Below are positions 3,277 to 46,393 of a stretch of DNA of 64,000 bases, piece by piece. Within the stretch, counting starts at the first letter, position 1. The number at the start of each line of letters is the position of its first letter. Below the pieces are notes generated by a model. The model saw nothing but the letters and a program-made list of their open reading frames with translations, searched no databases and had not been told where the DNA came from. Both the position numbers and the translations under genes were made by a program. Origin of the DNA: Candidatus Moranbacteria bacterium GW2011_GWC2_40_12 (GTDB lineage: Bacteria; Patescibacteriota; Minisyncoccia; Moranbacterales; UBA11712); NCBI GenBank assembly GCA_000995965.1, contig LBYD01000001.1:207265-271264 (forward strand). The letters run 5' to 3'.

Positions 3277-3305
3277 TTGTCAATTTGAAAGAATAATGTT
3301 AGTAT
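3277..3305 (+). promoter_or_regulatory. sigma70-like promoter TTGTCA-17-TAGTAT upstream of rpmE
   Basis: Hexamers with 17-nt spacing read directly. The predicted leader (about 3312-3424) contains TTCGTAA repeat arrays. Confidence 0.35.
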
Positions 3306-3328
3306 TTCTAGGAGCTACGCAGCTTTTT

Positions 3329-3417
3329 CACGAATTACGAATCTCTTACGAATATACCTATGCTTTGAATTCGTAATTCGTATATTCGTTGAGCGAAGCG
3401 TATTCGTAATTCGTAAA
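3329..3417. promoter_or_regulatory. array of TTCGTAA / TTACGAA heptamers (inverted and direct copies)
   Basis: cgaattacgaat ... cttacgaatat ... gaattcgtaattcgtatattcg ... gtattcgtaattcgtaaaa, lying between the divergent rpsB and rpmE genes. Confidence 0.4.
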
Positions 3418-3424
3418 ACTAGTC

Positions 3425-4146: not shown

Positions 4147-5214
4147 ATGAAAAGCCAAATTGACGCCGTGAAAAAAGAATACGACGCGCTGAAAAGCGAG
4201 CTCGAAAAGCCCGGCGTTGTTTCTGATGGAAAAAAAATGAAAGAAATTGGCAAAAGAATGTCAGAGCTTGAGGAAATCAAGGCAAAAATCGACGAACTCG
4301 AGGGCATAGAAAAGAATATGCGCGAAAACGCCCAGATTGTAAACGCGGAAAAAGATCCGGAACTCAAAGATATGGCAATGGCGGAAAACGTGAGTCTTGC
4401 CAGGAATAAAGAAAAAACTGAAAAAGAACTGCAGTCTCTTTTTATCCCCAAAGATCCAAATGATGCTAAAAGTGTAATTATGGAAATCAGGGCTGGCGCC
4501 GGCGGGGACGAATCGGCTCTTTTCGCCGCCGAGCTTCTTCGGATGTATTCGCACTTTGCCGAAAAGAACGGATGGAAAATATCCATCCTTAGTTCAAATC
4601 GAACGCCGATTGGCGGATTCAAGGAGGTTATTTTCAGTATCGAGGGAAGTGGAGCTTTTGAAAAAATGAAATATGAATCCGGAGTTCACAGGGTGCAAAG
4701 GGTTCCTGAAACTGAAAAAACCGGCCGTATCCACACATCGACTGTAACCGTGGCTGTCCTTCCGGAAGCCGAAGAGGTTGATATTGAGATAAATCCCGCT
4801 GACCTCCGGATTGACACATATTGCTCCTCCGGACCCGGCGGACAAAGCGTCAACACAACATATAGCGCCGTCCGCATCACACATATACCAAGCGGCACCG
4901 TTGTCACCTGCCAAGATGAAAAATCCCAGCAAAAAAACAAGGAACGAGCCATGAAGGTCCTGCGATCCCGCATTCTCGCGTCCGAAGAGGAAAAAAGAGC
5001 CAAAGAACTCGGAGAAGCAAGGCGCGGCCAAATTGGAACCGGAGACCGCAGCGAGAAAATCAGAACTTATAATTTTCCCCAAGACCGCATAACTGACCAC
5101 AGAATCAAGGAAAATTGGAGCAACATTGGAAACATTTTGGGTGGAAATCTGGACGAAGTAATTGATAAATTGCGAGAAGAGGATTTGAGACGAAAAATTG
5201 CCTCAACAGCTTGA
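4147..5214 (+). CDS. prfA: peptide chain release factor 1
   Basis: Tripeptide anticodon PET (PxT, RF1-type) and GGQ motif ([11 protein letters not shown]). Followed by prmC. Confidence 0.85.
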
Positions 5215-6341: not shown

Positions 6342-6920
6342 ATGAAAATCTGGCTTCAGGAAAACATGAGAATGCTGGTGAGTATCGTAATCGTTGTCGC
6401 TATTGCTGGAGGTATTTATGCCTACTCGAAAAGAACCCAGCCGCAAATTGCGCAAGATGAAGCGATTGAATCGACCGAAGATGCTGAAGGCAAAATCAGC
6501 GTTATAGGCGATGATACGGACAGCGAAAAGCAGATTGCTGATGAAAAGGAGGAAGGTGAGACTGTGTCTCAGGCTCAGCCGGGTACGCAGCCGCAAGCGC
6601 CTCCAACCGAGGCAAGCCAGGAAACTGCGAACTCGTTCGTAGAAACTGCTCAGAAAGGTGACAGCACAACCAAGTTGGCCCGGAGAGCTCTGGCTAACTA
6701 CCTGGAAAAGACACCCGACACAAGCCTCACCGCCGAACACAAGATCTATATTGAGGATTATTTGCGTCGGCAAGTCGAAAACGGCAGGTTGAATGTCGGA
6801 GAATCCAGGGAATTCAGCAAAGATAACATTGCAAATGCTGTCGAAAAATCAAAGGCACTGACCGAGAACCAGCTCAAGAATCTGGAAAAATACTCAAGCA
6901 GAGTGCCTGAACTAATGTAA
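6342..6920 (+). CDS. hypothetical membrane-anchored acidic protein
   Basis: Start placed at the Met preceded by GGAGGGGAGAAT. One TM segment, then a Glu/Gln/Pro-rich region. Confidence 0.4.
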   Translation: MKIWLQENMRMLVSIVIVVAIAGGIYAYSKRTQPQIAQDEAIESTEDAEGKISVIGDDTDSEKQIADEKEEGETVSQAQPGTQPQAPPTEASQETANSFVETAQKGDSTTKLARRALANYLEKTPDTSLTAEHKIYIEDYLRRQVENGRLNVGESREFSKDNIANAVEKSKALTENQLKNLEKYSSRVPELM

Positions 6921-7100: not shown

Positions 7101-8555
7101 ATGAGAAAAACCTTTCGTCGAATTCTTTTTTGGCTGCTAGTCCTTCTTTTTTTGGTCACCGCGCCAGTTGCCATCCTTTTTTCCCAAGGCTATCGTTTTG
7201 ACCAGAACAAAATGATATTCGTTCACAGCGGGGCCATCACTTTGAAATCTTTGCCTGCCAGCGTAAACATTTTTCTGGACGGGAAGCTTCAATCGGGAAA
7301 AAATCTCGATATCATCAATAGTTCAATGACTGTTGGTGGCTTGAGACCCGGAAATTATCACGTCGAGGCAAGTTTGGATGGGTACAGCCGTTGGGCGAAA
7401 AATGTCGAGGTTCACAGCGGGCTCTCGACGGAATTCTGGAACGTCGTTCTCGCACCGCAAAAAATGGCCGTCAGCGAACTCGAAAGCCGCAACGTTAACC
7501 GATTTTTCCCTTCCCCGTTTGGCAAAAAAACAGCTTACCTTGAAAATATTGATGAAAATATTTCCCTTTGGATGACTAATTTCAAAGAGAACAATACTCG
7601 CCCGATCTTCACCGGAAACGACGCTTTTTTTTCAAAAGACAAACATGAAAATCTGGAATGGAACTTTAAAGAGGATCTGATCCTTGCCCCTGTAGTCCGC
7701 AACGGCCAGAGAGATTATCTCGTTGCCAGTTCTGAAGGAAATATCGAGCCTTCCTATCTTTCGGATTTAGCAAAAATGAAAGGCATGCTGAAAGCGCGGT
7801 GGAGCCCGAAAGAAAAAAATGTTGTTTATTTTATAGCCCAAGACAGCGAAAAGGTAAGCAATCTTTATTCTTTCAGCCTTGACGACAGCACTCTTGAACT
7901 TCTCATTCCGGAAATATCAGTGTATGATCTTTCTCGAAGTTCGATATTTTTTCTGCAAAAAAACAATATTCCCTTTAAAAGCGATTTGGATGGCGGCAAT
8001 TTGATCCAGATAAACGACCGTCCTTTCACGAATTCGGAAATTGGAGAAAATGGCCGGCTGATTGTCTATGACGAAGATCGGCAGGTACTTATTTCTGAGA
8101 ACGGCGAACTTTATGTCCGAAACAACGGAGGCGAGGATCTCCTCAAAAAAATCGGAGACGGCATTTTGGGCGCCCAATTTTCTGACGATGGAAAAAAACT
8201 CTTATTTTGGAGTGAAAACGAAATATCAGTGATTTTTCTTCGCAAGTGGGAAGTCCAGCCTTATCGCGCTGAGAATGAAATTCAGACCATCATGCGGCTA
8301 TCCACGCCTGTCGACAATGTTTTTTGGTTCCGTGACTATGAGCATATTTTCTTTTCCGTGAAAAATAAAATCAAGCTTGTTGAGCTTGATTCCCGCGACC
8401 ACCGGACCATCCTTGACATTTTTGAAAACAACCTTGCGGAATTTCCAGCCGTCTACGACAGCGGAAACGGATACTACTATTTTGTGAAAGATTCGAACGG
8501 AGAAAAGAAAATCTCCTACTTCGCTCTTCCGGAAAAGACAGGGTTTTTCGAATAG
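7101..8555 (+). CDS. PEGA-domain / beta-propeller membrane-anchored protein
   Basis: N-terminal TM, a PEGA-like segment (PGNYHVEASLDGYSRWAKNVEV), and a C-terminal region with WD40/TolB-like strands. Confidence 0.5.
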   Translation: MRKTFRRILFWLLVLLFLVTAPVAILFSQGYRFDQNKMIFVHSGAITLKSLPASVNIFLDGKLQSGKNLDIINSSMTVGGLRPGNYHVEASLDGYSRWAKNVEVHSGLSTEFWNVVLAPQKMAVSELESRNVNRFFPSPFGKKTAYLENIDENISLWMTNFKENNTRPIFTGNDAFFSKDKHENLEWNFKEDLILAPVVRNGQRDYLVASSEGNIEPSYLSDLAKMKGMLKARWSPKEKNVVYFIAQDSEKVSNLYSFSLDDSTLELLIPEISVYDLSRSSIFFLQKNNIPFKSDLDGGNLIQINDRPFTNSEIGENGRLIVYDEDRQVLISENGELYVRNNGGEDLLKKIGDGILGAQFSDDGKKLLFWSENEISVIFLRKWEVQPYRAENEIQTIMRLSTPVDNVFWFRDYEHIFFSVKNKIKLVELDSRDHRTILDIFENNLAEFPAVYDSGNGYYYFVKDSNGEKKISYFALPEKTGFFE

Positions 8556-8614: not shown

Positions 8615-9097
8615 TTAGCGCTTCGAAAATTGCGGGGCGCGCCTTGCCTTTCTCAACCCGGCTTTTTTGCGCTCCACTTTTCGCGCGTCGCGGGTGAGAT
8701 ATCCGAGATCCCGCAACGTTTTTTTGTTAGCCTCGTTATAATTCACGAGCGCTTTAGAGATAGCGAGGCGCATCGCTTCGGCCTGGCCGCGAGGGCCACC
8801 ACCTTTCGCAACGGCGTTCACTTCAAAATCGCCTTCAAAGCCAACCGCTAAAAACGGCGAAGCAATGGATCTTTGAAGTTCGGGAAAGGGAAAATAGTTC
8901 AGAAACGTCCTGTTATTTATCTTGATGCTATCGGGAATTTTGAATTTTTCCTTGGAAACAATAATCTTCACGCTGGTTATGGCCGATTTCCGCCGTCCCA
9001 AACCGTGAAAATACCGCCGCTTGGCGGCCTTTTCAACTTTTTTCTCTTCCTGGACCTTCTTTTTTTTCACCGGTTCTTTTTTGGCCATAGAATTCAA
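8615..9097 (-). CDS. rpsI: 30S ribosomal protein S9 with Lys-rich N-terminal extension
   Basis: Conserved C-terminus GGGPRGQAEA ... RDARKVERKKAGLRKARRAPQFSKR. Confidence 0.85.
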   Translation of the reverse strand: MNSMAKKEPVKKKKVQEEKKVEKAAKRRYFHGLGRRKSAITSVKIIVSKEKFKIPDSIKINNRTFLNYFPFPELQRSIASPFLAVGFEGDFEVNAVAKGGGPRGQAEAMRLAISKALVNYNEANKKTLRDLGYLTRDARKVERKKAGLRKARRAPQFSKR

Positions 9098-12116: not shown

Positions 12117-12193
12117 TATGGAAAATTAATTCGTATATTTTTACCCGCCGTAGTTTTAGCAAAGGCGGGCGTGCTCCGATTAATTCGTAGAGA

Positions 12194-13035: not shown

Positions 13036-13069
13036 ATTCGTATATTCGTAAAGATTCGTAATTCGTAAA
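13036..13069. promoter_or_regulatory. TTCGTAA heptamer array upstream of infA
   Basis: attcgtatattcgtaaagattcgtaattcgtaaag. Confidence 0.35.
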
Positions 13070-13240
13070 GATAAAAAAACAAGGGCAATGCCCCAGAGCC
13101 TTTCAGCCTTTATACAAGGGGCAATTCAATCCAAATGCTTGAATATCTGAAATGTATATTTATCTAAGTTCATTTTAGTTTATCGCAGTTTTTTTGTCAA
13201 GATCGCATATACCGCTAGTCAAGGACCGACCTCGACTGGA

Positions 13241-16534: not shown

Positions 16535-17530
16535 ATGCAGCCGTCTTCTATTAAAAAAATATACAAATGGACCAGGATTGTCATCTTTGCGGTTCCTGTT
16601 TTCACCATATTGACAGGAATGTATCTTATTTTATTTCCTATCGAAAGTTTTGGCTACTCTTCCGGCCAGCCGGAAAATTCCAAATTCGAAATTTCAAAAA
16701 ATGATGCCAAACATGAAATTTCTTTCGGAGTTTTTCCAACTCTCAACCATCAGTATATTGATTTATCGGTTAATTTTGAAAAAATTGGGACCAGTTGCGC
16801 GGAAAAACCTTTCGAGATTACAATTGAAAAAACCTATCAGGCTTTCCTCTTTCCGGACGGAGAGCCGATAGGAGACAAACAATCGCTGCGAGAATATCTT
16901 TTCCGCGATAACAAATCCAAATATCCCAACGGCTCGCTTCTCCACCTCAAGCCGACGGATGAAGTATATCTTCTCTCTGGCGGCAAAAAAATTATTTTTC
17001 CCGGCCCGGAAATATTCCGCGCTTTCGGATATAATTTTGACAATCTGGCGGAGGTTGAAAAATCAGCGCTGGACCAGTTTCCCGACGCGGACAACCGCGT
17101 TTTTCTATGGACCCGCCCCCATCCCGACGGCACTTTGTTCCAAGCCTATCCTTCGCATAGGATCTTCATCGTCGCGGACGGAAAGAAGCACGAAGTCAAA
17201 GATACAGGCGACCTAAGCGAACTCTGGCATGAATATTTCACTGTACCCGTGAACGACGCAACGGAAGGCAACCAGCTCACTTGTTCTCCTGATTTTGAAG
17301 AGTTGGGAGATGGAAAAATTGCCTGCCGCTTTGACCGCCAGCTGATGCCATCAAGCTTGGGGGGATATTATCACTTTACTGTGAAATATCCGGATGAATG
17401 CCGCCAAACCGATGTCAATATTGAGAAGGCCGGAGTTCGGCTAGTTTCAGGAAAATCATTTGCAACAGTCAAAGATTCTTTCCGAAAGATTTTCGCATCA
17501 ATTGTAAACCGTTATTTCCTAAAACAATGA
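16535..17530 (+). CDS. hypothetical membrane-anchored protein
   Basis: 331-aa ORF with an N-terminal TM helix. No recognisable domain. Confidence 0.4.
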   Translation: MQPSSIKKIYKWTRIVIFAVPVFTILTGMYLILFPIESFGYSSGQPENSKFEISKNDAKHEISFGVFPTLNHQYIDLSVNFEKIGTSCAEKPFEITIEKTYQAFLFPDGEPIGDKQSLREYLFRDNKSKYPNGSLLHLKPTDEVYLLSGGKKIIFPGPEIFRAFGYNFDNLAEVEKSALDQFPDADNRVFLWTRPHPDGTLFQAYPSHRIFIVADGKKHEVKDTGDLSELWHEYFTVPVNDATEGNQLTCSPDFEELGDGKIACRFDRQLMPSSLGGYYHFTVKYPDECRQTDVNIEKAGVRLVSGKSFATVKDSFRKIFASIVNRYFLKQ

Positions 17531-21459: not shown

Positions 21460-22692
21460 TTATTCATAACGAAGAGCTTCTATCGGATTCAAGTTTGCCG
21501 CTCTTCGCGCCGGGTAAAATCCAAAAACAATTCCGACAACCGCCGAAACGCCAAAAGCATAGAAGACTGAAGAAAGAGAAATTCTGGTGTTGAGGCTGAC
21601 AAAATTATTCACCAAAAGTGACGCCCCCCAGCCAAGCACAATGCCGATCGCCCCGCCTAAAAATGTCAGCACGACCGCCTCGGCCAGAAATTGAAGATTG
21701 ATATACTTTTTCCTTAGCCCCACCGCTTTGCGCAGTCCAATTTCACGCGTTCTTTCGGTGACATTAGTCAGCATCATATTCATGATCCCGATCCCTCCCA
21801 CAAGAAGTGATATTCCCGCAATGGACGAGAGAAGGATGGTAAACGTACTGGTTATGCTCGTTGCCGTGGCGATGATGTCATTTTGATTCATGATGCGAAA
21901 GTCGGCCTGCGTCGGATCGGATATTTTGTGGCGGTCCAGAAGAAGAGCTGAAATTTGTTCCTGAACTGAAGTCATGGATGCCTGATCCGCGGCGGCGACA
22001 CCAATGTCGGACAGATAATCGTTCCCGGACAAAAAGTGTTGGGCGGAGGACAGAGGAACAAAAATATTGCTGTCGGGGTTATTGAAACCGGATCCGCCCT
22101 TGGATTCTGTGACTCCGACCACCTGAAAATCAACGTTTCTTATTTTGACTGATTGGCCGACCGGATTGGCATTCACGCCGAACAAATCATTCCTCGTTGT
22201 TGGACCAAGAATGGCCACTTTGGCTGAGGTTTTTTGCTGCTGGTCGCTAAAAAAAGAGCCGATATTCATTTTCACGTTCCGGACAACAAGATAGTCCTTC
22301 ACTGTTCCAACTACTTCGGCGTTGGTATTTGTGCCTTTGGCGGTTATTTGGTAGCGCTTTGAGGCTTCGGGAGCAACCGCCTTCACATTTTGCACCTGGC
22401 TTTTTATCGCGTCGGCGTCTTCAATAACCAAAGTTTGAGAACTGCCGGCTCCCTGGCTGATTCCGCCTACTCGCTGTGCCCCCGGCATCACCACAATCAA
22501 GTTTGAACCGATTGATTCGATATCGCTTTCGATGGTGCTTTTCGCTCCCTGTCCGATAGCCACCATCGTGATCACTGAAGCTATCCCGATGACAATACCC
22601 AAAATCGTCAGGCCCGAACGGGCCTTATTTCCGGAAAGTGAACGTATTGTTTCTCGAAACAGGTCCTGGATCATGTGGCACAAAGATATCAA
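21460..22692 (-). CDS. ABC transporter permease, MacB/FtsX family
   Basis: MacB periplasmic core domain plus a C-terminal FtsX four-helix region. Confidence 0.75.
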   Translation of the reverse strand: MISLCHMIQDLFRETIRSLSGNKARSGLTILGIVIGIASVITMVAIGQGAKSTIESDIESIGSNLIVVMPGAQRVGGISQGAGSSQTLVIEDADAIKSQVQNVKAVAPEASKRYQITAKGTNTNAEVVGTVKDYLVVRNVKMNIGSFFSDQQQKTSAKVAILGPTTRNDLFGVNANPVGQSVKIRNVDFQVVGVTESKGGSGFNNPDSNIFVPLSSAQHFLSGNDYLSDIGVAAADQASMTSVQEQISALLLDRHKISDPTQADFRIMNQNDIIATATSITSTFTILLSSIAGISLLVGGIGIMNMMLTNVTERTREIGLRKAVGLRKKYINLQFLAEAVVLTFLGGAIGIVLGWGASLLVNNFVSLNTRISLSSVFYAFGVSAVVGIVFGFYPARRAANLNPIEALRYE

Positions 22693-23366
22693 TTTTTTTC
22701 GTCTTTCTCGATCAATCCGTCGCGAACGGAAATGACACGCCGCGCGAACTGGGCGATTTCCATTTCGTGAGTGATTATTATAATAGTATGTCCTTTGCTG
22801 TTGAGCTCCTGAAAAGTTTTCATCACCACACGGCTTGTTCTTGTGTCGAGATTTCCAGTCGGCTCATCCGCAAGAATGATAGAAGGGTCGTTGATGAGAG
22901 CCCGGGCCACAGCCACGCGCTGCATCTGTCCGCCGGACAGCTGGTTGGATAAATTGAAAAATTTGCTTTCCTCAAGGCCGACATACTTCAGGGTTTCACG
23001 AGCCTTAGCTTTTCTTTTCTTCATCGGCATATCCGAAAAAACAAGCGGGAGCATGACATTCTGAAGAACGGTTGTCCGGGGAAGAAGATTGAAAGACTGA
23101 AAAACAAAGCCTATTTTCCCCCGCCGGAGATCCGAAAGTTCGTTGTCAGTCAGACGCGAAACTTCTTTTCCTTCTAAAAAATATTGGCCGCCGGTCGGAG
23201 TATCAAGCGCCCCAAGAATATGCATAAGCGTTGATTTTCCAGATCCCGAAGGCCCGACAATGGCAACAAACTCCCCCTTTTCGATCCTAAAAGAAATGCC
23301 GCAGACCGCCTGGGTTTCAACATCGCCGTTTATATACGTTTTGCATAAATTATTGCAAACAATCAT
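22689..23366 (-). CDS. ABC transporter ATP-binding protein (MacB/LolD-type)
   Basis: Walker [10 protein letters not shown], signature [15 protein letters not shown], Walker [12 protein letters not shown]. Confidence 0.85.
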
Positions 23367-23509
23367 ATCAAATTAAAAAATCAAATATCAAAGTGAAAAA
23401 TGACAATGTAAAATGAAAAATGTTTTTATTTCAAAGACTTTTTGACCTTTGATCATTTTTGAATTTTGAACTGTAATTTTGATTTTTGATTTTTACATTT
23501 TTAACTTTC
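23367..23509. repeat. AT-rich imperfect-palindromic repeat, copy A
   Basis: Shares aatgacaat ... tcattttgaattttga ... ttttacat blocks with 51055-51198. Internal inverted symmetry. Confidence 0.4.
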
Positions 23510-24688
23510 TTAGTCCTGTCTTCCGCCGCCGCCCAAGCCCGGAAGTCGGATTCCGCTGCTGCCGGTTCTATTTGAACTTGAAGCGCTGGCACTTGCGGCC
23601 GCGGTGGAGTTTATTGTTTGTATCACAACTTTGTCTCCCGCCTTGATGCCGCTAATAATCTCTGTTTCCGTGCTGTTTGAAATTCCGGCCTGCACGCTTT
23701 TCTTTTCGGGAGCATTTCTTGCCAACACTTCAACATAATCGCCATCCCCGTCATTTTTGACCGCGCTTGAAGGAACAATCAAGACATTTTGTTTCACATC
23801 GGTGATGATTGACGCCGAAACACTCATCTCGGGCTTCACGCGGCTGTCAAGAGAATCAAAACAAATGGTAACGTCATAGGTAACCACTCCTTGATCCTGC
23901 GTTCCCAGCGAATCAATTTTTTCGACTATTCCTGAAGTTTTCAGTCCTTCAACTGCGTCAAATTTGATCATCGCCTTTTGGCCGATCGAAACATTGGCAA
24001 TATCCACTTCGTTCACTTGCACCTGATTTTTCATCGTCCCGAGATCTCCGATGATAATCGGAACTTGCCGCGTGCTTCCCGAAGAAACCTTGCTTAGGTC
24101 ATCCCCGTTTTTTATGTTCACCGCGTTGACCGTTCCATCAATCGGAGAAACGACCCGCCTCTCGGCTGCGTTTGATTTTTGATTGGCAAGATCGGCCCCT
24201 GAAGAAACAAGCGCTTGCTCGGCAGATGCGACTGAAGCTTCGGCTGCTTCAAATTTTTGCTTGAGAGCCGCTTTGTTTTTTGAAGTTGTCGCGTCAAGAT
24301 CGGCTCTGGCCTGTTTTTTTGAGGCTTTCGCTGATTCGAGCGAACTCAAAGCTTGCGCATAGGAAGTTTGAGATTTAGAAACGCTGACAGAAAGATCATC
24401 ATTGTCAATGCTGAAAAGAAACTGCCCTCTTGTCACTTTGTCTCCAATATTCACTGCGAGATTCGCGACTGTTCCGGTGATTGTTGGATCAATATTCGAG
24501 CTTTGGTCGACAATCACGTTTCCGCTCGCCGAAATCGAGGAAGTCAGTGTCCCCGTTTGGGCTGTCGCCGTGACATATTTGACCTGGCTTGCGGTTGATT
24601 TGGAATTGCTATACCACCAATAGCTTCCCCCGGCTATCACGATGATTGCAATCCCGATATACGCTTTCCTGGACTTTAGGTAGTTCAT
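23510..24688 (-). CDS. efflux periplasmic adaptor (HlyD/MacA family)
   Basis: N-terminal TM, coiled-coil hairpin, beta-barrel and MP domains. Gene order adaptor-ATPase-permease. Confidence 0.7.
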   Translation of the reverse strand: MNYLKSRKAYIGIAIIVIAGGSYWWYSNSKSTASQVKYVTATAQTGTLTSSISASGNVIVDQSSNIDPTITGTVANLAVNIGDKVTRGQFLFSIDNDDLSVSVSKSQTSYAQALSSLESAKASKKQARADLDATTSKNKAALKQKFEAAEASVASAEQALVSSGADLANQKSNAAERRVVSPIDGTVNAVNIKNGDDLSKVSSGSTRQVPIIIGDLGTMKNQVQVNEVDIANVSIGQKAMIKFDAVEGLKTSGIVEKIDSLGTQDQGVVTYDVTICFDSLDSRVKPEMSVSASIITDVKQNVLIVPSSAVKNDGDGDYVEVLARNAPEKKSVQAGISNSTETEIISGIKAGDKVVIQTINSTAAASASASSSNRTGSSGIRLPGLGGGGRQD

Positions 24689-24728: not shown

Positions 24729-25220
24729 TCAATTATTGCTCGCAAACACTCGAATAAGGTCGGCGCTCACAGTCCCGTCGTCTCCCGGTTTTCCCATCAC
24801 AACAATCCGGTCGTCATTTTTGAGTTCATTCACGCTGATAGTGTCTCGGCCCCGCTTGATGAGAGTTTTGTCATCCACTGCGATTGAGTTCTCCTGCCCG
24901 TCGCGGTCTTTCAAAACGATTTTATTGTCGGTAATAGATATAATCTCCCCCGCGATTCCGTGGGCGTTCCGGAACCCGCGGCCTTCGAAATCGCGCATCA
25001 TTTCGCCCGGATCTCTTCCCGGCCCCCTCATCCCCGCCGGTCCGCGAAACGGCCCGCCGAAATTGCGTTCATAATTTTCCCCGAATTTATAGGAGAATCG
25101 CGCCTTTTTGAGTCCAACCGCCACCCCTCCGGCAAAACTCACCAGAGCAACGAAAATAACGCCGACAAAAAGCACGGCAATCTGGAAACCTTTTGATTTT
25201 ATTTTTTCCTGGATGTTCAT
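24729..25220 (-). CDS. hypothetical membrane-anchored protein
   Basis: 163 aa, N-terminal TM, Gly/Arg-rich linker, and a C-terminal beta-rich domain. Confidence 0.4.
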   Translation of the reverse strand: MNIQEKIKSKGFQIAVLFVGVIFVALVSFAGGVAVGLKKARFSYKFGENYERNFGGPFRGPAGMRGPGRDPGEMMRDFEGRGFRNAHGIAGEIISITDNKIVLKDRDGQENSIAVDDKTLIKRGRDTISVNELKNDDRIVVMGKPGDDGTVSADLIRVFASNN

Positions 25221-25298
25221 TGAATATTAATTCTTCGCTAATTACGAATATTTTTCATTCGTATATTCGCAAGAGATTTGTAATTCGTAAAGAATGAG

Positions 25299-25891: not shown

Positions 25892-26548
25892 CTATTTGAG
25901 GGTTTCTTTTAGCTTCCCCAACCCCCTTTGATGCCGGCTCTTAACTGTGTTGTAGGGTTCGCCCAGAATTTCGGCGATTTCGTGGAGGGAAAAGTCTTCT
26001 TTATAGTGCAAAAGTAAAATCGCGCGGTAACGCGGCGGAATTTTTGATAATATTTTTTCCAGATCTTCTGTGATATTTTTTCGCTCCAGAATTTCGTCCG
26101 GCAGGATTTCATCGCCGGATATATTTTCAAGAGCATTATTTCCTTCATCATCCTCGAATTTTGAAAACAAAATCTCTTTTTTCTTTTTGAGCCAGTCAAA
26201 AGTCGTATTTTTGGCGATGGTGAAAAGCCACGTTCTGAATTTTTTATCCGGATCATATTTCTTAAAATTTTTCCATACTTTCACAAAAGTCTCTTGAGTC
26301 AAGTCTTCGGCCGTGTCGCGATTATTGACCAGTCTGAAAATAAAATTATAGGCCGGCTTCAGATGTTTTTTCACCAGCTCCGAAAAAGCGGCTTCATTGC
26401 CGCTTAAGTATTCTTCAATTATTTTTTCATCGCTTTTTTCCATGTTCTGCCGAAAATTCTCAAGGTAGTCAAATTTATCCACGTGGAGGAAAATGACCAC
26501 TTTTTCTCTTCCCAACATCCGATGTTGGGAAATTAGCTTTTTAGCCAA
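25892..26548 (-). CDS. RNA polymerase sigma factor, ECF (sigma-70 regions 2 and 4)
   Basis: Region 2 DLTQETFVKVW ... WLFTIAKN and region 4 HTH LHEIAEILGEPYNTVKSRHQRGL. The start is probably an internal Met near 26443. Confidence 0.75.
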   Translation of the reverse strand: MAKKLISQHRMLGREKVVIFLHVDKFDYLENFRQNMEKSDEKIIEEYLSGNEAAFSELVKKHLKPAYNFIFRLVNNRDTAEDLTQETFVKVWKNFKKYDPDKKFRTWLFTIAKNTTFDWLKKKKEILFSKFEDDEGNNALENISGDEILPDEILERKNITEDLEKILSKIPPRYRAILLLHYKEDFSLHEIAEILGEPYNTVKSRHQRGLGKLKETLK

Positions 26549-27642
26549 TCGAGCGTTTCACGGGCGCATTTATCCCAGGAAAAGTCTTTCACTCGTTCAA
26601 GTCCCCTTTCTTTCAGCTGGTTTTTGAGTGTAGCGTTTTCCAGAACTTCCCGCAATGATTTTGCCAGCTCAATCGGATTATTTGGCTTATATAGAAGGCC
26701 GCTTTCCCGCAAGATTTCGCCCAAACTTGAATTATTCGCCGCAATGACTGGTACTCCGCAGGCCATGGCTTCAACAGCGGGAAGGCCGAATCCTTCGTAG
26801 AGCGAAGGCAAAACAAACGCTTCCGCGCCCCGGAGGAGGGCCGGAAGATCTTTCGTCCTGAACTTACCCAGATATATTACGCCTTCGGTGGATTTTATTT
26901 TCTCGAGAATTGGCCCGTATTGCCAGCCAAGATCGCCCGCGATTGCCAGTTTCAAATCCGAAAAATTTTTTTTTATAATTTCATAGGCTTCAATCAGCGT
27001 TTCAATATTTTTCCGCGGCTGGATGGCGCCGACATAGATTATGAATTTTGAATTTTGAATTTTGAATTTTGAAAGCGTATTTCTTATTCGCTCTGTGGAT
27101 ATATTTTCGTTAAACAATTCCTTGTCGTAGCCATGGTAGATCACTTTTATTTTTTCTTCGCGGAGATGCGGATAAAATTCCAGCAAGTCTTTTTTGGTCG
27201 AACGCGAAATCGCGATCAGTTTGTCAGCGTGGCGCGCGGCATAATCAGTGAACCAGTTCAGCCGCCGCAAATCTTTTTTTGGAAAAAATTGCGGAAAAAA
27301 CTTGAAAGCCAGATCATGGATCGTCACAACGGTTTTTGTTTTTTTTGAGCGAAGATACGGAAGCGAATGCATCGGCATCCAGAGAACATCCGGTTTCTCT
27401 CGAAATATTTCCCAGCCGAACCGCGTCTGCGTCCACCATAAAGGAAAAGATAATTTTTTGATTTTATAATTCCTAAACACGGGGAAGGCCAATTCGGGAT
27501 TGAATTCCGATTTGTGATAAATCAAAAATTGATCCCGATCGTCAGCATCGGGACCAAAATTTTTGAGCATATTCTGGATATATATCCGCGTACCGTCGAT
27601 CCGGGAATGATCAAGGTCGGACGCGTTGACAGCGATCCGCAT
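26533..27642 (-). CDS. glycosyltransferase family 4 (GT-B)
   Basis: EGFGLPAVEAMACGVPVIA motif. An in-frame (gaatttt)x4 DNA repeat sits at 27038-27068. Confidence 0.75.
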   Translation of the reverse strand: MRIAVNASDLDHSRIDGTRIYIQNMLKNFGPDADDRDQFLIYHKSEFNPELAFPVFRNYKIKKLSFPLWWTQTRFGWEIFREKPDVLWMPMHSLPYLRSKKTKTVVTIHDLAFKFFPQFFPKKDLRRLNWFTDYAARHADKLIAISRSTKKDLLEFYPHLREEKIKVIYHGYDKELFNENISTERIRNTLSKFKIQNSKFIIYVGAIQPRKNIETLIEAYEIIKKNFSDLKLAIAGDLGWQYGPILEKIKSTEGVIYLGKFRTKDLPALLRGAEAFVLPSLYEGFGLPAVEAMACGVPVIAANNSSLGEILRESGLLYKPNNPIELAKSLREVLENATLKNQLKERGLERVKDFSWDKCARETLDWLKS

Positions 27643-27801
27643 ATCTTTGCGAATTACGAAAAAAGAAACTTGCTGATGGAGGTTGGAAAGTAGTAATAGT
27701 GAACAGAAACTGGAAATTTGTCTGCGCTATTTTCAATTTTAAAATTTCAATTGCTAATTTCCATTTTCAAAAAACTATTCTCAAATTTCGCATTTGGTAA
27801 T

Positions 27802-29292
27802 TCAATAGTTTCTATATTTTCCTTTCTTGATATCCCTTATAAACTCCCTGAACCCCTCCTGCGCCTCTTGCTCGAACATCGCCCTCACCGCGAGCGGAGT
27901 GGTAGCCGGAGACTTCCAATTGTAGATCGGCTTCAAGTTTTTTCGCATAATATAAGCGGTTTTCACCAAAAAATTGGTGTCGCCCTGCACCGGACAGGCA
28001 TAAAGGTAATCCTCCGGATCTCCGCTTTGGTTGAAGCCGCCCTTCACCTCGAAAGAAATTGGCAGTCCGTGTTTTTTTATCGCCCGATAGGCTTCGACTG
28101 GATTAGGATAATGATTAAAATTCTTGTTGAGATGTTTTATATCCGCGTTTTTTATGTTTTTCAGATGATTCGTTTCAACCATAACAAGGCGCTTGAGCTT
28201 CCGGTCAAAAAAGCAGGCACCGCCTTTTTGGGGTTTCAAGGAATTTTGGGCAACAATTTCCATCACCATATTGTATCTTTTTTTTCCAAGATTGAGCGCG
28301 AGAGCAAGACTCGGAAGATCCACGGCGCACGTGAGATATCCCAAATCCTCGACGTTATAGGACAGCAAATCGTCATGTTCGGACAATATTTTTTCAAATT
28401 CTTCGCTTCGAAGATATGTTTTTTGGCCGATATTTTTCGGGTCAATTCGAAAAATAACGTTGTCGTGAGCTTTCTGCATGACCATTTGTCCGTGATTGTG
28501 AAGACGCTTATTTTTTTCCGTCGTCTGATCATAAAAAAGGCAACCTTGCTTGATATACATTCCATGAAAACTGCGCTGAACCATGAAAAATACTTTTCTG
28601 GGATTGAGCCCAAAAAAATTGAAATTCCGGAATTCGTCAAGGATCTCTTCGGCTGTCTGCTCATTGAGAATGATAAGCGCGCTTTGTTTTGCAAGAACTG
28701 CTTTGGGATTTTTTTTGTTTTCCTTGGCGATGCGGCAAACATCATACGCCATCTGGAGCATATGGCGGTTCCCGAGAGAAATAGTCAAGAGTTTTTTTGG
28801 ATCATCGCCGGATATATCAAGTATTTTCTTTCTGGTTATTTCTTTCTTTATTTTCTTTTTTTCTTTCGCCAGTTCTTTGCCTTTTACGCCATTTTTTTCA
28901 AGCTCTTGAAAGGCTTCTTCGCGAATATGAACAGCGATTTCCTCGAGAGAATATTTTCCAAGCTCCAGCAGATATTTCGTGCCCAGCCCCAGCCGAGTCG
29001 CTTCACCGGCCGCAGCGTGTTCCCAAAAAAACTTTCCCTCCAGAATGGATTTTTCAGCTTTTGATGTTCCGATTTTGTCGTCATCAAGGACAACAATCTG
29101 TTTCTCCCTGGCAGGATCAAGATAAGCGAAGTTTTCGTATGCATTCAACTCGAGCTGCGCTTTTTTTATATCCCGCATCGCGATTTTTTTCGCGTCCCTA
29201 AAATGGCGATGCAGCATCCACTCGATTCGCCTCAGGACGGAAATCCGGTATTCCTCAAAACAATCGATGTGAATTTTTGGTTTCGTGCCCAT
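27802..29292 (-). CDS. UDPGP-family nucleotide-sugar pyrophosphorylase-like protein
   Basis: GEATRLG motif resembling the GG(Q)GTRLG signature of UTP-sugar pyrophosphorylases. Located in the sugar-nucleotide cluster. Moderate confidence. Confidence 0.4.
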   Translation of the reverse strand: MGTKPKIHIDCFEEYRISVLRRIEWMLHRHFRDAKKIAMRDIKKAQLELNAYENFAYLDPAREKQIVVLDDDKIGTSKAEKSILEGKFFWEHAAAGEATRLGLGTKYLLELGKYSLEEIAVHIREEAFQELEKNGVKGKELAKEKKKIKKEITRKKILDISGDDPKKLLTISLGNRHMLQMAYDVCRIAKENKKNPKAVLAKQSALIILNEQTAEEILDEFRNFNFFGLNPRKVFFMVQRSFHGMYIKQGCLFYDQTTEKNKRLHNHGQMVMQKAHDNVIFRIDPKNIGQKTYLRSEEFEKILSEHDDLLSYNVEDLGYLTCAVDLPSLALALNLGKKRYNMVMEIVAQNSLKPQKGGACFFDRKLKRLVMVETNHLKNIKNADIKHLNKNFNHYPNPVEAYRAIKKHGLPISFEVKGGFNQSGDPEDYLYACPVQGDTNFLVKTAYIMRKNLKPIYNWKSPATTPLAVRAMFEQEAQEGFREFIRDIKKGKYRNY

Positions 29293-40423: not shown

Positions 40424-41794
40424 CTAAAAAATCATATCGCTTGTCAATTTTCCGCCTGTTTCGCCGCTCGTTCCATCTGCTCTGCGGACTTTGGCAGAAA
40501 AATCAACTTCGCCCGATCCGGATTGCTTCTGGACAAGCAGTTTGTAGTCTTCACGTGAGATATCTTCAGGAAGATTATATTTCAAAGTAATCGTTTTCGT
40601 CCCGCCCACCGGAACGAACACCTTCATTCCGAAAACCTTTTTCCCGAATTCCTGGGAAAAAACAACATCACCCTCCGGCCCGGATGATTCCTCAAGAAAA
40701 GAATTTTTGGGGACATAGACGCGGAGCCAGTCGCGATAGTCAGCCGTCATCCAATCTTTGGACCGGCATGTATGTTCATAGGTTATATTGAGTACCGCCT
40801 GGGGATTTTCACCTCCCATATCAGCGCTATAATCAATTTTTCGCCGCATGCAAATATCGCTTTTGAGCGCATTCATGTTCGCGTCAACGACCATAAGATA
40901 ATCTCCGTCAAATTCCTTCACTCTTCCGCCCCAGTTCATTTCATCAATTTCTTTCTGCAGCTGTTCGTCTTTGAAAAAAAACTGGATATCTTTTCTTTTG
41001 AGATGGCTTTCCATTCTTTTTCCAAGTTCCAGATTCTCGGAAATCGAAAATTTGTGGACTTTTTCAATGAGAACATCAGCCAGCTCGCCAAGTATGTTTT
41101 TTCGCTCTCCTTTGGCAATTCCCTGTTCCAAGAATCCCTTTTCCACCTGATATTCAAGCTGAAGAATAGCCGTCTGGTCGCTATATTGCCCCGGATAATC
41201 GTTGATTTTCACCGGCCCGGTGATCGCCAGAATGGAATTCAAAATATCAGTATTCACCGCGATAACGCCGTCAAAATTTTCCCCTCCCTCGCCGAACTTA
41301 TAGAAATACTCCGCTTTTTCGGCGTTCACTTTGAAATCCGGCGACCAGTTCGAATCGCGCATTTTCCAGGCTTTGATGCCGAGTATATCAGAAAAAGGAA
41401 CCGGCGGAGTTTCTGTCAACGGAATGCGCTGGTCAAAAATTCCTGTATCGTGAACGTCAAGGCCGGAAATTTTGCCATTTTTTGTTTTCACGATTCCGAA
41501 AGAGCCTATGAAACCGCCTCCCGGGCGAAGTTCCATGTCATTTTGAAAAAGGACGAGAAAAGTTTTCTCGCCGGAAAATCCTCCCATTTTATCGTATATA
41601 TTCGCCAAAACCGCAAGTTCATTTTTCCGTTCGGGTCCAACAGGCAAAATATTCGTGAGGGGTTTCAGGTTTTCGATGTTCCGGTTTTGGATTTGGAGAA
41701 AAATATACCAGCCAAAAAGCGCCAGCGCGGCCACGAGCCAGAAAATAATCCAGAATTTCCAGGTATATTTTCGACGAATTTTCGGATGATTCAT
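40424..41794 (-). CDS. DUF4012-like membrane-anchored protein
   Basis: N-terminal TM and ELRPGGGFIGSFG motif, as recalled for DUF4012. Adjacent to the polysaccharide cluster. Confidence 0.5.
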   Translation of the reverse strand: MNHPKIRRKYTWKFWIIFWLVAALALFGWYIFLQIQNRNIENLKPLTNILPVGPERKNELAVLANIYDKMGGFSGEKTFLVLFQNDMELRPGGGFIGSFGIVKTKNGKISGLDVHDTGIFDQRIPLTETPPVPFSDILGIKAWKMRDSNWSPDFKVNAEKAEYFYKFGEGGENFDGVIAVNTDILNSILAITGPVKINDYPGQYSDQTAILQLEYQVEKGFLEQGIAKGERKNILGELADVLIEKVHKFSISENLELGKRMESHLKRKDIQFFFKDEQLQKEIDEMNWGGRVKEFDGDYLMVVDANMNALKSDICMRRKIDYSADMGGENPQAVLNITYEHTCRSKDWMTADYRDWLRVYVPKNSFLEESSGPEGDVVFSQEFGKKVFGMKVFVPVGGTKTITLKYNLPEDISREDYKLLVQKQSGSGEVDFSAKVRRADGTSGETGGKLTSDMIF

Positions 41795-42355: not shown

Positions 42356-42384
42356 TTGACAAAGACGTACCAGCCTGCTATGCT
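42356..42384 (+). promoter_or_regulatory. near-consensus sigma70 promoter TTGACA-17-TATGCT
   Basis: Hexamers read directly, with an AT-rich UP-like segment upstream. Fires into the GC-rich island. Confidence 0.45.
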
Positions 42385-42439
42385 AGACACACAAAATCGC
42401 AATGTGCGATAGGAAAAGTATTATTACCAACCAAAAGAG

Positions 42440-43030
42440 AAGGAGATTCGCCATGCCCGACGTTTTTTTGAGTACCTGCGGCCAGTGCCACTTTTTCGAA
42501 TGCAACGCCAATATCGGCGCCCAGGGCCCCATCACCTGACCCAGGTGAGCCCCCGGCGCGGGCTGGCGGCCTTTCCGCCGGCCCTGCCATCGTGAAAGGA
42601 GAGTTTATTAACCCCGGCCATTGCGGCCGCCTGACCGGCCCGCCGCTAAAGCGGTGGTTTCGGAGGTGCCCCATGACCATCACCCGGTGCCACAGGACAG
42701 AGGTTCCTGGCTAGGCGCAGACAATCTTCGGCAGCGGCCCGCGTGAGGCGGCTGACGAGATTGCGTGTAGTGCCCCGCGGGGTGACTAAAAGACCGGCGG
42801 CTCAATCCCACTCTGGGAATAGGCCTGGCGGCAGCTGGTGTCGGTGCCGATCCACGGAGATCTGGCGCCCGCGGCCCAAAGAACGCCAGCAGAGCCCTCC
42901 CACATTCCGGCCCATCAGCCTGACCTTTCCGCGGAAGGCCGGGCCAACGTCCTCGCGGGTTGTGTAGCAAAAGCGGTGCGGCTGCTGGGAGACACTCCAA
43001 CCCCTCCCGGCGCCGCGCCGCCCTTTTTTA
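42440..43030 (+). other. about 600-bp GC-rich (about 65 % GC) non-coding island; candidate structured RNA or foreign-DNA remnant
   Basis: Strong compositional contrast with flanking DNA at about 35-40 % GC. Dense GC hairpins (cacctgacccaggtg, ggcggcctttccgcc, ccccgcgggg). All six frames translate to Arg/Pro/Ala-rich junk. Confidence 0.4.
42453..42539 (+). CDS. 28-codon Cys-rich sORF (MPDVFLSTCGQCHFFECNANIGAQGPIT)
   Basis: ATG preceded by AGAAGGAGA at -7. About 60 nt downstream of the predicted TSS. Not in the ORF track because it is under 60 aa. Confidence 0.3.
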   Translation: MPDVFLSTCGQCHFFECNANIGAQGPIT

Positions 43031-44198
43031 CGAAAAGTGATTTTGTTCTTTTTTTATCGCCTCTCCGGATAACGAGGCAAATTATCAATCATTTAGGAGC
43101 TTCCAGTATCACCCCAGCAGAACCGGATTTCTGCTGGTTTTTTTTGAAAATTAATCTTTTAAAATTTTTCTTGCTTCATTTTTCCACCTTCTTTGTTGAC
43201 AAGAGCCAAAAAACTGCTAAAATCAGAACTACCAGAGAACTCCCTTTCTTTGGTGGTGCTTGCGGAGCGCGGATATTGGAGCTGGAAGTCAACCTCCCCG
43301 TTAAGCGACAACTAGAATCTCTCTTGTCCGCGACTCCGCCTTATTTCAAAAGTTTCAGTTCTTTATTAGAACCGAGAAAATTCTCGGCAAAAAATTCTCA
43401 ATCGGATAATATTATCCAGGGCTGGCGTTCGTTCAGTTTCAATTTCTAGAATCAAATCTAGCAATTATAAAACGGCCGCCAGCCTCCCCTTCCTTACAAT
43501 CTGTAAGGTTTTTTATTTCTCGAAAATTTTCTTTTGCGGTTTTTTTGTTGCCGTGGTAGATTATGAACATCAGTGTTTGAGGGAGGTGATGATGAGGAAC
43601 GCTTTGGTAAGGAAAGGCTTCGTCTAACGACGAGCAACACGAAACTTCACCCAGCCGCCGCTGGAAGAATCGTGGATATCATTCAAGAATTCAACGACTT
43701 ACTCCGGCGGCGCAAACTTTTTCAGTTCTTGAGAAATATACGGGCTTTGCCGGGGAAAACAAGGTTGATACCCATACTCCTTTCAAGTTTTCGGTGCTTC
43801 TTCCTTTTTTCCGGCAGCCCGCCAGCTCTTCGTGAGGAGCCTCCAGGCGATCCGCGGCATACCCCTTCCGCGGAAAAACCCGGGCCTGATCCACACCCGC
43901 CAACGCTTCAAAGCTGGTTCCCCCCGGCAAAGGCGGTGAGAGGCTCTTCACGAACCCTTTCAAAAAGTTTGCAGATCCCTGGCGTTTTTTGCTCCCGGGG
44001 GAGAAAAATCGGTCGAGCGAAAAACGCCAAAACCACTAAAGGGCCCCGCAACTCGGGGAAGAGGTGACCAATGGACTTCCCGGCAATTTTTGCGGAAGAA
44101 CTAAGGAGGACGCCTATGAGGAAAAGCACAACTGAGATAACTGGCGCGTTAATCTTCAAAAAATATAACTGAAACAAAAGCACCCCGGGGCTCATGCC

Positions 44199-44226
44199 AC
44201 GGGGTAATTTTTATCCTAAGATCCGA
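44199..44226. repeat. 27-bp direct repeat with REP-like palindrome (left copy) ttttatcctaagatccgatcttgggat
   Basis: Identical to the copy at 44925-44951. Contains the palindrome cctaagatc-c-gatcttgg. Confidence 0.7.
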
Positions 44227-44242
44227 TCTTGGGATAGAGATC

Positions 44243-46342: not shown

Positions 46343-46393
46343 TTCGGATAGGATTGCAGAAAATCCAAATTATGAATTACTGATTCCAAATCA

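Follow-up and report, generated by a model that had tools for sequence, protein, structure and literature searches.

A dispersed heptamer-built palindrome in Moranbacteria intergenic DNA and its possible role as an RNA hairpin between genes

A stretch of 64,000 nucleotides (nt) from Candidatus Moranbacteria bacterium GW2011_GWC2_40_12 (contig LBYD01000001.1, positions 207,265 to 271,264; in the following, the window) carries clusters of the heptamer TTCGTAA and its complement TTACGAA in front of several genes, among them rpmE and infA. An earlier sequence-only reading had proposed that these clusters are operators for a global dimeric regulator or a lineage-specific promoter element. Our analyses showed that the heptamers are parts of one discrete composite palindrome of about 95 nt and not free-standing half-sites. 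With a probability of about 0.55, the clusters are full, half and fragmentary copies of a dispersed palindromic repeat that acts, if at all, as an intercistronic RNA hairpin. The best-supported classification is a palindromic repeat family resembling repetitive extragenic palindromic (REP) sequences, REPINs or miniature inverted-repeat transposable elements (MITEs). Anatomy, dispersal, position rules, turnover between species and predicted folding of this element were established directly, and they are set out below before its possible function is weighed.

A composite palindrome in intergenic DNA

All six clusters listed by the sequence-only reading were found (Table 1), and an additional site lies in the rpsM-rpsK spacer. 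The window contains 18 copies of TTCGTAA, and dinucleotide-preserving shuffles give 9.3 ± 3.2. The better-registered word is ATTCGTA with its complement TACGAAT; 18 of its 20 copies in the 64-kb window are intergenic, and the proposed confinement to intergenic DNA near gene starts thus very nearly holds. Intergenic DNA amounts to 6,173 bases, or 9.6% of the window, and a first-order Markov simulation (2000 runs) predicts 0.9 ± 0.9 copies there, with a maximum of 6. Comparison of intergenic with coding DNA within the window gave an odds ratio of 84 (Fisher P 8e-17), and the word ranks top among the non-homopolymer k-mers enriched in the intergenic DNA. Shuffles and the intergenic/coding contrast agree that the motif is non-random, as had been supposed, and rule out chance or AT-richness as the source of the clusters. 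With Tandem Repeats Finder, 7 was the dominant period of the window (19 of 54 tandem-array rows). Period-7 arrays were found at 3368-3389, 3402-3416, 13054-13068 and 48534-48562, with only 2-4 copies per run, and a further one at 48482-48510.

The order of the complete element is cTT-TACGAAT-TACGAAT-CTn-TACGAAT-A-TACGAAT / loop / ATTCGTA-ATTCGTAT-ATTCGTA-GAGCGAAGCG-T-ATTCGTA-ATTCGTA-AAg. Its termini are cTTTACG and CGTAAAg, full copies finish with ...AUUCGUAAAGAAnnnAUG, and the heptad spacings within it are irregular (7, 10-12, 8). We aligned 13 loci of about 95 nt from different contigs (A2 alignment). Across these loci, arms and internal loop are conserved and the terminal loop is variable (8-17 nt). 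The predicted fold consists of an outer stem P1 of 16-17 bp, an inner stem P2 of about 15 bp and the terminal loop; between the stems lies a predicted asymmetric internal loop (4 x 10 nt) in which CTnT faces the conserved GAGCGAAGCG. The P1 arms are terminal inverted repeats of 16-17 bp and are kept in 13/13 aligned loci. In every full copy the GAGCGAAGCG loop is on the gene-proximal side, so that the complete element is orientation-dependent and not orientation-independent as proposed for the heptamer. The perfect palindrome TTACGAATTCGTAA, to which the clusters had been compared, does not occur in the window, where loops separate the inverted arrays.

A search of the window with an nhmmer profile made from the 13 loci returned the full copy in the rpmE leader (E 5e-25), a 5' half with a stub in front of a DUF5666 gene (E 3e-10) and a 5' half in front of infA (E 8e-7). 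The three sites have a block of at least 30 nt in common, TTTACGAATTACGAATCT(n)TACGAATATAC in the orientation of the downstream gene, and a fuzzy composite search found exactly three copies of it in the window. The rpmE copy, with the rpmE ATG just 3' of it at 3425, is predicted to fold as RNA into a nested hairpin (-31 kcal/mol, z -2.98). The infA half stands directly after a terminator-like hairpin and T7 run, 24 nt before the ATG at 13011, and this half-after-terminator arrangement before infA is repeated in a related species (L533). The third site had been placed upstream of a sigma-operon gene. The cluster is present; however, it lies downstream of the genes for an extracytoplasmic function (ECF) sigma factor and a putative anti-sigma factor, 9 nt past the stop of the latter and directly before the DUF5666 gene (24729-25220), with 36 nt to the ATG at 25220. 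A degenerate palindrome occupies the whole spacer between an HlyD-family gene and an ABC ATPase gene, ending in TTTT at a TTG start codon (fold z -2.9).

An Rfam 15 scan of the window brought only three tRNAs to the gathering threshold, and no family matched the element. At permissive thresholds the rpmE leader had no match at E <=1, and the infA leader only a chance miRNA hit. The literature that we searched held no paper with the doubled heptamer and none on promoter motifs of Patescibacteria. The element is apparently a variant of REP-like elements and heptanucleotide repeats that is undescribed in Patescibacteria.

Position rules and replacement between relatives

A metagenome scan with 17 nt of the 5'-half block returned more than 116 stretches. 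Among these, 50 non-redundant copies contain the whole 5' half, and at least 13 are complete elements of about 95 nt that align with 3325-3418. Open reading frames (ORFs) were called mechanically. Of the 50 copies, 23 have their first TACGAAT 1-11 nt (mode 4) behind the end of a long ORF that runs in the same direction. The full copies are followed in 11-12 of 13 cases by a long ORF whose ATG stands 2-17 nt past the final ...CGTAAAG. From these position rules it follows that the element typically fills the stop-to-start spacer inside operons. Canonical sigma-70 promoters within 90 nt upstream were no commoner (3/11 full copies, 3/38 solo halves) than in controls (2/45). Solo halves are aimed at the downstream gene in 22 cases versus 9 by strict ORF criteria, at distances of 6, 6, 8, 20, 24, 36, 38 and 44 nt and longer from the ATG. 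The genes that follow the metagenome copies are unrelated housekeeping genes for S7, EF-G, L25, DnaK, UvrA, ThyA, formate-tetrahydrofolate ligase (FTHFS), CorA, an M16 peptidase and an RsmI-like methylase; those behind the three profile-significant copies of the window encode L31, IF-1 and a DUF5666 protein.

Word and element are also found on contigs of other genomes and hence, contrary to the earlier claim, are not genome-specific. Here L-numbers denote fetched or metagenome loci; among the metagenome contigs with the element, L529 was assigned taxonomically. It belongs to a sister Moranbacteria species, with an EF-G 95% identical to that of the window organism, and its operon runs rpsL, full copy, rpsG, solo half, fusA. 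The window's own organism has a further copy in its rpsJ-rplC spacer (L537). Elsewhere in Patescibacteria, an element stands between rpmE and prfA in L080 (profile E 6e-7), and short arrays occur in L012 and L005.

At rpmE, five species could be compared. A cTTGTCAattt...TAnTnT promoter block is kept in the window and in four sister species, and the DNA between promoter and ATG varies. In L418 the distance is 8 nt, the element is absent and the promoter abuts the ATG in a leaderless-like manner. It is about 55 nt in L419, with three ATTCGTA (profile E 1e-4), and about 95 nt in L417, where a diverged palindrome changed TACGAAT to TGCGAA with the A-U to G-C change matched in both arms. The window has about 110 nt with the full element and L420 about 150 nt with a decayed copy. 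As the promoter is constant while the promoter-to-ATG DNA varies, the rpmE element is a leader insert that is dispensable for rpmE and evolves in place. The window and 6 other assemblies have the same rpmE arrays, and the window and 10 others the same infA arrays. None of them differs in array length, and a phase-variable simple-sequence repeat was rejected on this ground, although this is a weak test since the assemblies are at least 99.97% identical overall. The window's ABC ATPase has an identical counterpart annotated as from GW2011_GWC1_45_18, and GCA_001784895.1 contains the rpmE locus as well.

The TACGAAT element is one of at least three heptamer-built palindrome families in this Moranbacteria genome. 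A second family, with AAAATGA/TCATTTT words, has at least 3 loci in the window organism, which share 87-90% identity over 26-46 nt in pairwise blastn. Its copy in the rpmG spacer is common to L413 (87% identity over 135 nt). A third palindrome, with GAATTGT and ATTCTCA words, reads on the gene strand as a hairpin followed by TTTTTT (fold -36.8 kcal/mol, z -3.7). We compared four syntenic relatives whose ABC ATPase is 83-90% identical to that of the window. ATTCGTA reaches only 0-2 copies per 20 kb in these sister genomes versus 20 per 64 kb in the window, which bears out the proposal of a lineage-restricted motif. Among the relatives' 257aa-HlyD, HlyD-ABC, ABC-MacB and MacB-MacB2 spacers, a single long hairpin is the predicted fold of most (z down to -8.1), and each relative genome uses its own word: AAATCCT, CAAAGCT, TTTTCAA, TTTCTAA or AATTTCA.

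Orthologous spacers across 5-6 Moranbacteria hold members of the ATTCGTA, AAAATGA, AAATCCT, CAAAGCT, TTTCTAA and AATTTCA families. The HlyD-ABC hairpin is present in 5/5 species (z -2.9 to -8.1) and in the paralogous operon (z -1.95), with a T4-T8 run immediately before the ABC start codon. The rpsL-rpsG spacer contains the ATTCGTA element in L529, an AAAATGA palindrome in L537 and an AAATCCT palindrome in L538. At rpsG-fusA, L529 has a solo half, L537 an empty spacer of 8 nt and L538 again an AAATCCT palindrome. From the HlyD-ABC, rpsL-rpsG and rpsG-fusA comparisons we conclude that structure and position are kept while the sequence family is replaced. Filled and empty orthologous sites face each other at the rpmE leader (empty in L418), at rpsG-fusA (empty in L537) and at the rpmG spacer (empty in L414 and L416).

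Some further observations concern these junctions. The paralogous HlyD/ABC ATPase/MacB-permease operons of the window (21460-24688 and 44957-49887) carry palindromes in both HlyD-ATPase spacers, from different families. The genes rpmG (L33, 52 amino acids; 50896-51055, minus strand) and rpmJ (L36; 12583-12699, minus strand) were both missed by an 80-amino-acid ORF filter; the rpmG ATG is abutted by a long AAAATGA-family hairpin with a T-run end. In the rpsJ-rplC spacer of two Moranbacteria (L537, 6690-6740; L538, 6860-6905) a conserved hairpin CTAGTTAAAGTCCCGATTTATCGGGATACTnAnCTAG stands downstream of the variable repeat and may be a genuine conserved leader or regulatory RNA.

Pure (ATTCGTA)n arrays occur in many IMG/VR contigs with GC contents from 26% to 66%, often as inverted pairs that fill stop-to-start spacers. 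As triple arrays, (ATTCGTA)3 was found in 63 stretches versus 21, 14 and 7 for three composition-matched words, i.e., it is 3-9x commoner; the published TAACTGA repeat gave 107 stretches. For viral contigs we used start-codon distances, since coding labels are unreliable for a word whose TTACGAA strand has no stop codons. Direct-only arrays of viral-type contigs mostly have the UUACGAA sense (about 17 vs 4, hand tally). In L100, near-perfect (ATTCGTA)n/(TACGAAT)n palindromes at 6394-6468, 7887-7930 and 8739-8789 each abut a start codon, and its HIP1-like GCGATCGC motif suggests a cyanobacterial or cyanophage origin for some pure arrays. Paired inverted heptamer arrays outside Patescibacteria were also seen in L030 (Desulfobacteraceae, 700-772) and L071 (Botrimarina, 4406-4497). 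Before rpmE in L080 (Patescibacteria, 2872-2960) lies a GC-rich palindrome of (GGGCGTA)5 followed by inverted TACGCCC copies; hence the heptamer-palindrome architecture also exists with GC-rich words.

Table 1. Heptamer clusters, element copies, related palindromes and promoters in the window
Position	Strand	Feature	Context and source
3283-3255	-	Divergent rpsB promoter, TTGACA-17-TAAACT	Promoter scan
3277-3305	+	Sigma-70-type rpmE promoter, TTGTCA-17-TAGTAT	20 nt upstream of element; promoter scan
3325-3418	+	Complete element	rpmE leader; nhmmer, A2 alignment, fold
3325-3342		P1 5' arm	rpmE copy
3343-3346		Internal loop CTCT	rpmE copy
3347-3358		P2 5' arm	rpmE copy
3359-3368		Terminal loop	rpmE copy
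3369-3389		P2 3' arm and extra heptad	rpmE copy
3390-3400		Conserved internal loop (T)GAGCGAAGCG	rpmE copy
3401-3418		P1 3' arm	rpmE copy
3329-3417		Exact TTCGTAA x5	rpmE leader cluster
12126-12189	-	Fragments: two 11-nt direct repeats TACGAATTAAT (gene strand) flanking a GC-rich hairpin	rpsM-rpsK spacer
12126-12135 and 12180-12189		Additional site, absent from the earlier list	rpsM-rpsK spacer
13036-13072	-	Solo 5' half CTTTACGAATTACGAATCTTTACGAATATACGAAT	infA site; nhmmer, fuzzy search
13036-13069		Exact TTCGTAA x3	Before infA
23367-23509	-	AAAATGA/TCATTTT-word palindrome (second family)	Paralogous HlyD-to-ABC spacer
25237-25293	-	5' half with 3 substitutions, then short inverted piece ATTCGTAATT and AGCGAAG	nhmmer
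25241-25290		Exact TTCGTAA x2	Before DUF5666 gene
27649-27665	-	Terminal fragment TTCGTAATTCGCAAAG (gene strand)	Directly before ATG (27642) of GT4 (glycosyltransferase family 4) gene
27651-27660		Exact TTCGTAA x1 and variant TTCGCAA	Before GT4 gene
47636-47753	-	Third heptamer palindrome, GAATTGT / ATTCTCA words	ABC ATPase-MacB permease spacer
48482-48562	-	Degenerate palindrome	Arm GTAATTCGTAATTAGCAATTCGTAATTCGG vs arm CCCAATTACTAGTTACAAATTACCAATTAC, pairing at 24/30 positions
48533-48562		Exact TTCGTAA x2	Degenerate complementary arm at 48482-48511
51056-51198		AAAATGA-family member	Abutting rpmG ATG; also in rpsL-rpsG spacer of same organism (L537)
60341-60353	-	Single heptamer TTTACGAATTAG (gene strand)	Right after strong terminator hairpin, 27 nt before ATG at 60317
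60341-60352		Exact TTCGTAA x1

Several other non-coding features were noted in the window. Before infA (13073-13200, minus strand), a promoter TTGACA-17-TAAAAT (11/12 matches) is followed about 70 nt later by the terminator-like hairpin GGGGCATTGCCC and T7 run, and an upstream GCCCC could pair alternatively with GGGGC of the hairpin; without an Rfam match, this region could be a transcription attenuator or a small RNA. A Shine-Dalgarno sequence is recognisable in 14 of 68 window genes, and many genes have a TAnnnT box 5-8 nt before the ATG (for example, 40424-41794, 16535-17530, 52487-52966 and 27802-29292); rare Shine-Dalgarno sequences and TAnnnT boxes together suggest that leaderless mRNAs are common in this organism. 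The gene at 44243-44917 has the 23-nt hairpin ATCCTAAGATCCGATCTTGGGAT on both sides (44213-44235 and 44929-44951). Directly after tRNA-Thr(GGU), the segment 52130-52214 (minus strand) combines GCAGTTCGAATCTGC, which resembles a T-arm, with an acceptor-like 3' strand and a terminator. Neither ARAGORN nor Rfam recognises a tRNA or tmRNA there; the segment might represent a fragmentary tRNA or an RNA gene that is unusual or split. Finally, 42378-43449 has a GC content of about 51% versus 44% for the window. It contains ORFs to which Pfam assigns no family, and its spacer at 42684-42837 is highly self-complementary; a structured RNA may lie here, and the only Rfam hit is a chance miRNA match.

The hairpin reading and its rivals

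On the reading as a dispersed hairpin repeat, the elements, which lie in stop-to-start spacers and in 5' leaders downstream of ordinary promoters, would for this reason be transcribed together with the flanking genes. The inverted arms would fold into a long A/U-rich RNA hairpin, whose base would leave no more than about 10 nt between the stop codon before it and the start codon after it. The families may spread and replace each other in the fashion of REP sequences, REPINs or MITEs, with transposition or gene conversion as the mechanism. At junctions such as HlyD-ABC and rpsL-rpsG, where a hairpin is present in each relative, a structural role of the intercistronic RNA is most likely. It could serve as a leaky terminator or attenuator, as a 3'-end stabiliser, as an RNase III-type processing site or in translational coupling.

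A number of observations weigh against this reading. Solo 5' halves cannot form the hairpin alone, yet they are preferentially oriented toward the downstream gene, and some of them stand directly after terminators (infA, two species) or 6-8 nt from an ATG, which a promoter would explain better. In the aligned loci, one-sided stem changes show no excess of G.U over A.C, and there is no folding advantage of the sense strand, with sense and antisense energies split 4:4; neither comparison was able to reveal selection at the RNA level. Stem covariation is limited to the outermost pair (C-G, U-A, G-C) in sequences that are highly conserved and of which 17 nt were fixed by the search pattern. This exact 17-base pattern from the 5' half also inflates apparent conservation and hides solo 3' halves. 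With respect to mobility, the flanks of 10 full copies show no consistent target-site duplication, the sole candidate being CTAGG...CTAGT at rpmE versus the empty site in L418, and no transposase or RAYT (Y1 HUH transposase) gene is among the Pfam-scanned window ORFs. The fixed orientation of full copies requires an extra assumption, either selection or strand-specific insertion. Moreover, the tight stop and start distances could result from mere insertion into spacers of about 10 nt.

The strongest rival, although we consider it quite improbable, is a portable promoter. TACGAAT(A) after TT(T) would then represent -10-type boxes of an alternative sigma factor, like the SigX/ComX box TTT-TACGAATA, and the 5' half would drive the downstream gene, often with a leaderless or short-leader transcript. 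In streptococci the SigX box (cin-box) has the consensus TACGAATA, adjoins a T-tract and mostly lies at 7-30 nt from the ATG (PMC6001120). The element contains TTTACGAAT and two copies of this identical octamer, likewise preceded by a T-tract, all five TACGAATA in the window are intergenic, and the ATG distances of solo halves, from 6 nt upward, are similar. That solo halves face the downstream gene, that 35 of 38 lack a canonical promoter within 90 nt upstream, that the infA half follows a terminator in two species, and that in this genome few genes have a Shine-Dalgarno sequence and -10 boxes at 5-8 nt from the ATG are common all fit a promoter. However, the copies that begin 1-11 nt past a co-directional stop lie inside operons such as rpsG-fusA, and at rpmE a conserved sigma-70 promoter already precedes the element. 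Promoters are not built from four -10 boxes in tandem, and in the TACGAAT...ATTCGTA palindrome, which predominates, the two halves would amount to promoters that fire toward each other. The genes downstream are housekeeping rather than competence genes. The sole non-housekeeping sigma factor in the window is of ECF type, with SigW-like best matches, and not of the SigX, SigH or ComX type; as cognate factor for the neighbouring 25.2-kb site it was rejected, being an ordinary ECF sigma factor with the element downstream of its operon. An operator array for a sequence-specific DNA-binding protein, which might be an omega (pSM19035)-like ribbon-helix-helix protein coating 7-bp heptads or a Fur/Zur-type dimer, has a similarly small chance in our view. 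Heptads stand in direct and inverted order at period 7, the word is conserved across many contigs, and the stem changes lack an RNA-type strand asymmetry. Omega-type heptad operators exist, Zur classically controls rpmE and rpmG in other phyla, and TCGTAAT is the Zur half-site of Bacillus subtilis. Nevertheless, the 7-1-7 Zur box TCGTAATnATTACGA has no match in the window at up to two mismatches, TCGTAATTACGA is absent like TTACGAATTCGTAA, and the sequence of L31 here is of the zinc-ribbon form (CxC...CxxC), so that the Zur box was rejected. The element lies downstream of promoters or between cistrons and not over -35/-10 boxes, its target genes have no common theme, and apart from the ECF sigma factor the Pfam-scanned window ORFs include no ribbon-helix-helix, Fur-family or other DNA-binding regulator. 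The irregular heptad spacings, the position relative to promoters and the lack of a ribbon-helix-helix gene among these ORFs count against an omega-type operator.

At the RNA level, the array could alternatively be a single-stranded translation signal, following MacGregor's reading of TAACTGA repeats, in which an A/U-rich array would replace the Shine-Dalgarno sequence and recruit S1, a cold-shock-domain protein or another RNA-binding protein. Arrays abut the Shine-Dalgarno-less starts of rpmE, GT4, rpsK and the ABC ATPase, full elements end in ...AUUCGUAAAGAAnnnAUG, the viral-type direct-only arrays favour one sense, and the TAACTGA repeats before Shine-Dalgarno-less genes provide a precedent (PMC4679880). 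We still regard such a signal as having a low probability. Both strands of the word adjoin start codons, 45 of 59 motif-free genes also lack a Shine-Dalgarno sequence and make the association unspecific, and the predicted fold of full copies puts the array next to the start codon in a stem. Turnover between relatives tells against promoter, operator and translation signal alike: at the same junctions sister species hold unrelated palindromes, other words or nothing. In particular, a sequence-specific regulator cannot explain this. Of the original cis-element proposal, a non-random, lineage-restricted and intergenic motif remains, while the operator or promoter mechanism is unsupported and disfavoured. 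Neutral slippage, finally, would leave heptanucleotide arrays without any element or function, and such arrays would survive only between genes, as a repeat unit of 7 nt disrupts the reading frame and contains TAA. According to Mrazek 2007 (as cited in PMC4679880), the long simple-sequence repeats of many prokaryotes most often have a heptanucleotide unit, triple arrays of composition-matched arbitrary words also occur in IMG/VR (7-21 stretches), and one in-frame array lies inside the GT4 gene. Yet the 95-nt arrangement with its non-repetitive conserved internal loop is fixed at many loci and in many genomes, (ATTCGTA)3 is several times above its controls, copy number does not vary among the 6 (rpmE) or 10 (infA) other assemblies, and hairpins persist at orthologous junctions through complete sequence turnover. 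As the composite is conserved, we take slippage to be largely refuted already and its probability to be very low.

The array in the GT4 gene (26533-27642) is a five-copy in-frame TCAAAAT array on the gene strand (27038-27073, minus strand). It encodes SKFKIQNSKF, which is part of the linker between the two Rossmann domains, and belongs to the same word family as the intergenic AAAATGA/TTTTGAA palindromes.

Significance and relation to known repeats

Bacteria of the candidate phyla radiation have genomes of about 1 Mb with little intergenic DNA and few known regulators, and almost no annotation exists for their non-coding part. Of the spacer DNA that is left in essential operons (str, S10, the rpmE, rpmG and infA regions, efflux), a large share would belong to a few heptamer-palindrome families that turn over between sister species. 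The dispersed hairpin repeat accounts for a conspicuous motif without a new regulator, its 95-nt profile is usable in annotation pipelines, and it offers a tractable system to study function and spread of intergenic heptanucleotide repeats and REP-like elements. If the hairpins do process transcripts or couple translation, they would add a major level to the control of gene expression in bacteria that so far do not grow in isolation.

A more far-reaching model, which we consider rather unlikely, treats the hairpin cassettes in Patescibacteria operons as fast-turnover functional modules that insert precisely in the order stop, about 4 nt, hairpin, about 6 nt, start. The hairpin would loop out, keep termination and re-initiation coupled and add a processing, stabilising or attenuating site that sets subunit stoichiometry. 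The word of each genome would co-evolve with a trans-acting factor, such as a nuclease, an HUH enzyme or a binding protein. The ATTCGTA cassette might in addition provide an outward SigX-box-like promoter and thus be a mobile expression signal in regulator-poor genomes.

Among known systems, REP hairpins stabilise upstream mRNA or attenuate read-through. Like the REP, BIME and REPIN sequences of Proteobacteria (e.g., the malE-malF REP), the Moranbacteria palindromes are short (30-150 nt), imperfect, multicopy and predicted to form hairpins, fall into species-specific families, and are intergenic-only, often inside operons and presumably co-transcribed, and present or absent at orthologous sites. 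Both marks of the REP class, a multicopy intergenic palindrome capable of hairpin formation and families that differ between relatives, were thus found. In contrast to REP sequences, the arms consist of tandem 7-nt units, there is no GTAG head at the cTTTACG and CGTAAAg ends, no RAYT was seen within the 64 kb, and the host is a Patescibacterium with a genome of about 1 Mb. Several families here also replace one another at the same junction in sister species. With MITEs and the palindrome-associated elements derived from IS200/IS605 the element shares terminal inverted repeats (the P1 arms), a non-coding length of about 100 nt, insertion polymorphism between relatives and near-identical copies at unrelated loci, and its orientation bias would fit single-strand (HUH) transposition. 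It differs from MITEs by the lack of a consistent target-site duplication and of an identified autonomous partner, and by rpmE-leader copies that persist and diverge in place.

The intercistronic RNase III hairpins of phage T7, of the R1.1 type, are built from a lower stem, an asymmetric internal loop and an upper stem. The element resembles them in its predicted stem-loop-stem architecture between cistrons, immediately 5' of the next start, an analogy that is purely structural, as the sequences are unrelated. Among intergenic tandem heptanucleotide repeats, the STRR sequences of cyanobacteria form another class. Geobacter metallireducens has intergenic repeats of four GGACCGG and of five paired MTYCTGA (PMC2700814). 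TAACTGA intergenic heptanucleotide repeats are known from Beggiatoaceae, Cyanobacteria and Bacteroidetes, where they lie at least 1 nt upstream of Shine-Dalgarno-less genes, ribosomal-protein genes included (PMC4679880). The Moranbacteria heptamers agree with these sets in the 7-nt unit, the strong intergenic preference and the position directly before Shine-Dalgarno-less starts, among them those of ribosomal-protein genes, and also, like the TAACTGA type, in one word that is shared across distant lineages. Of the features of the tandem heptanucleotide class, head-to-tail 7-nt copies are present and copy-number variation by slippage was not seen. TAACTGA sets are nearly all direct and in a single orientation, whereas the heptamers described here are locked in a composite palindrome with irregular spacings around a conserved, non-repetitive internal loop.

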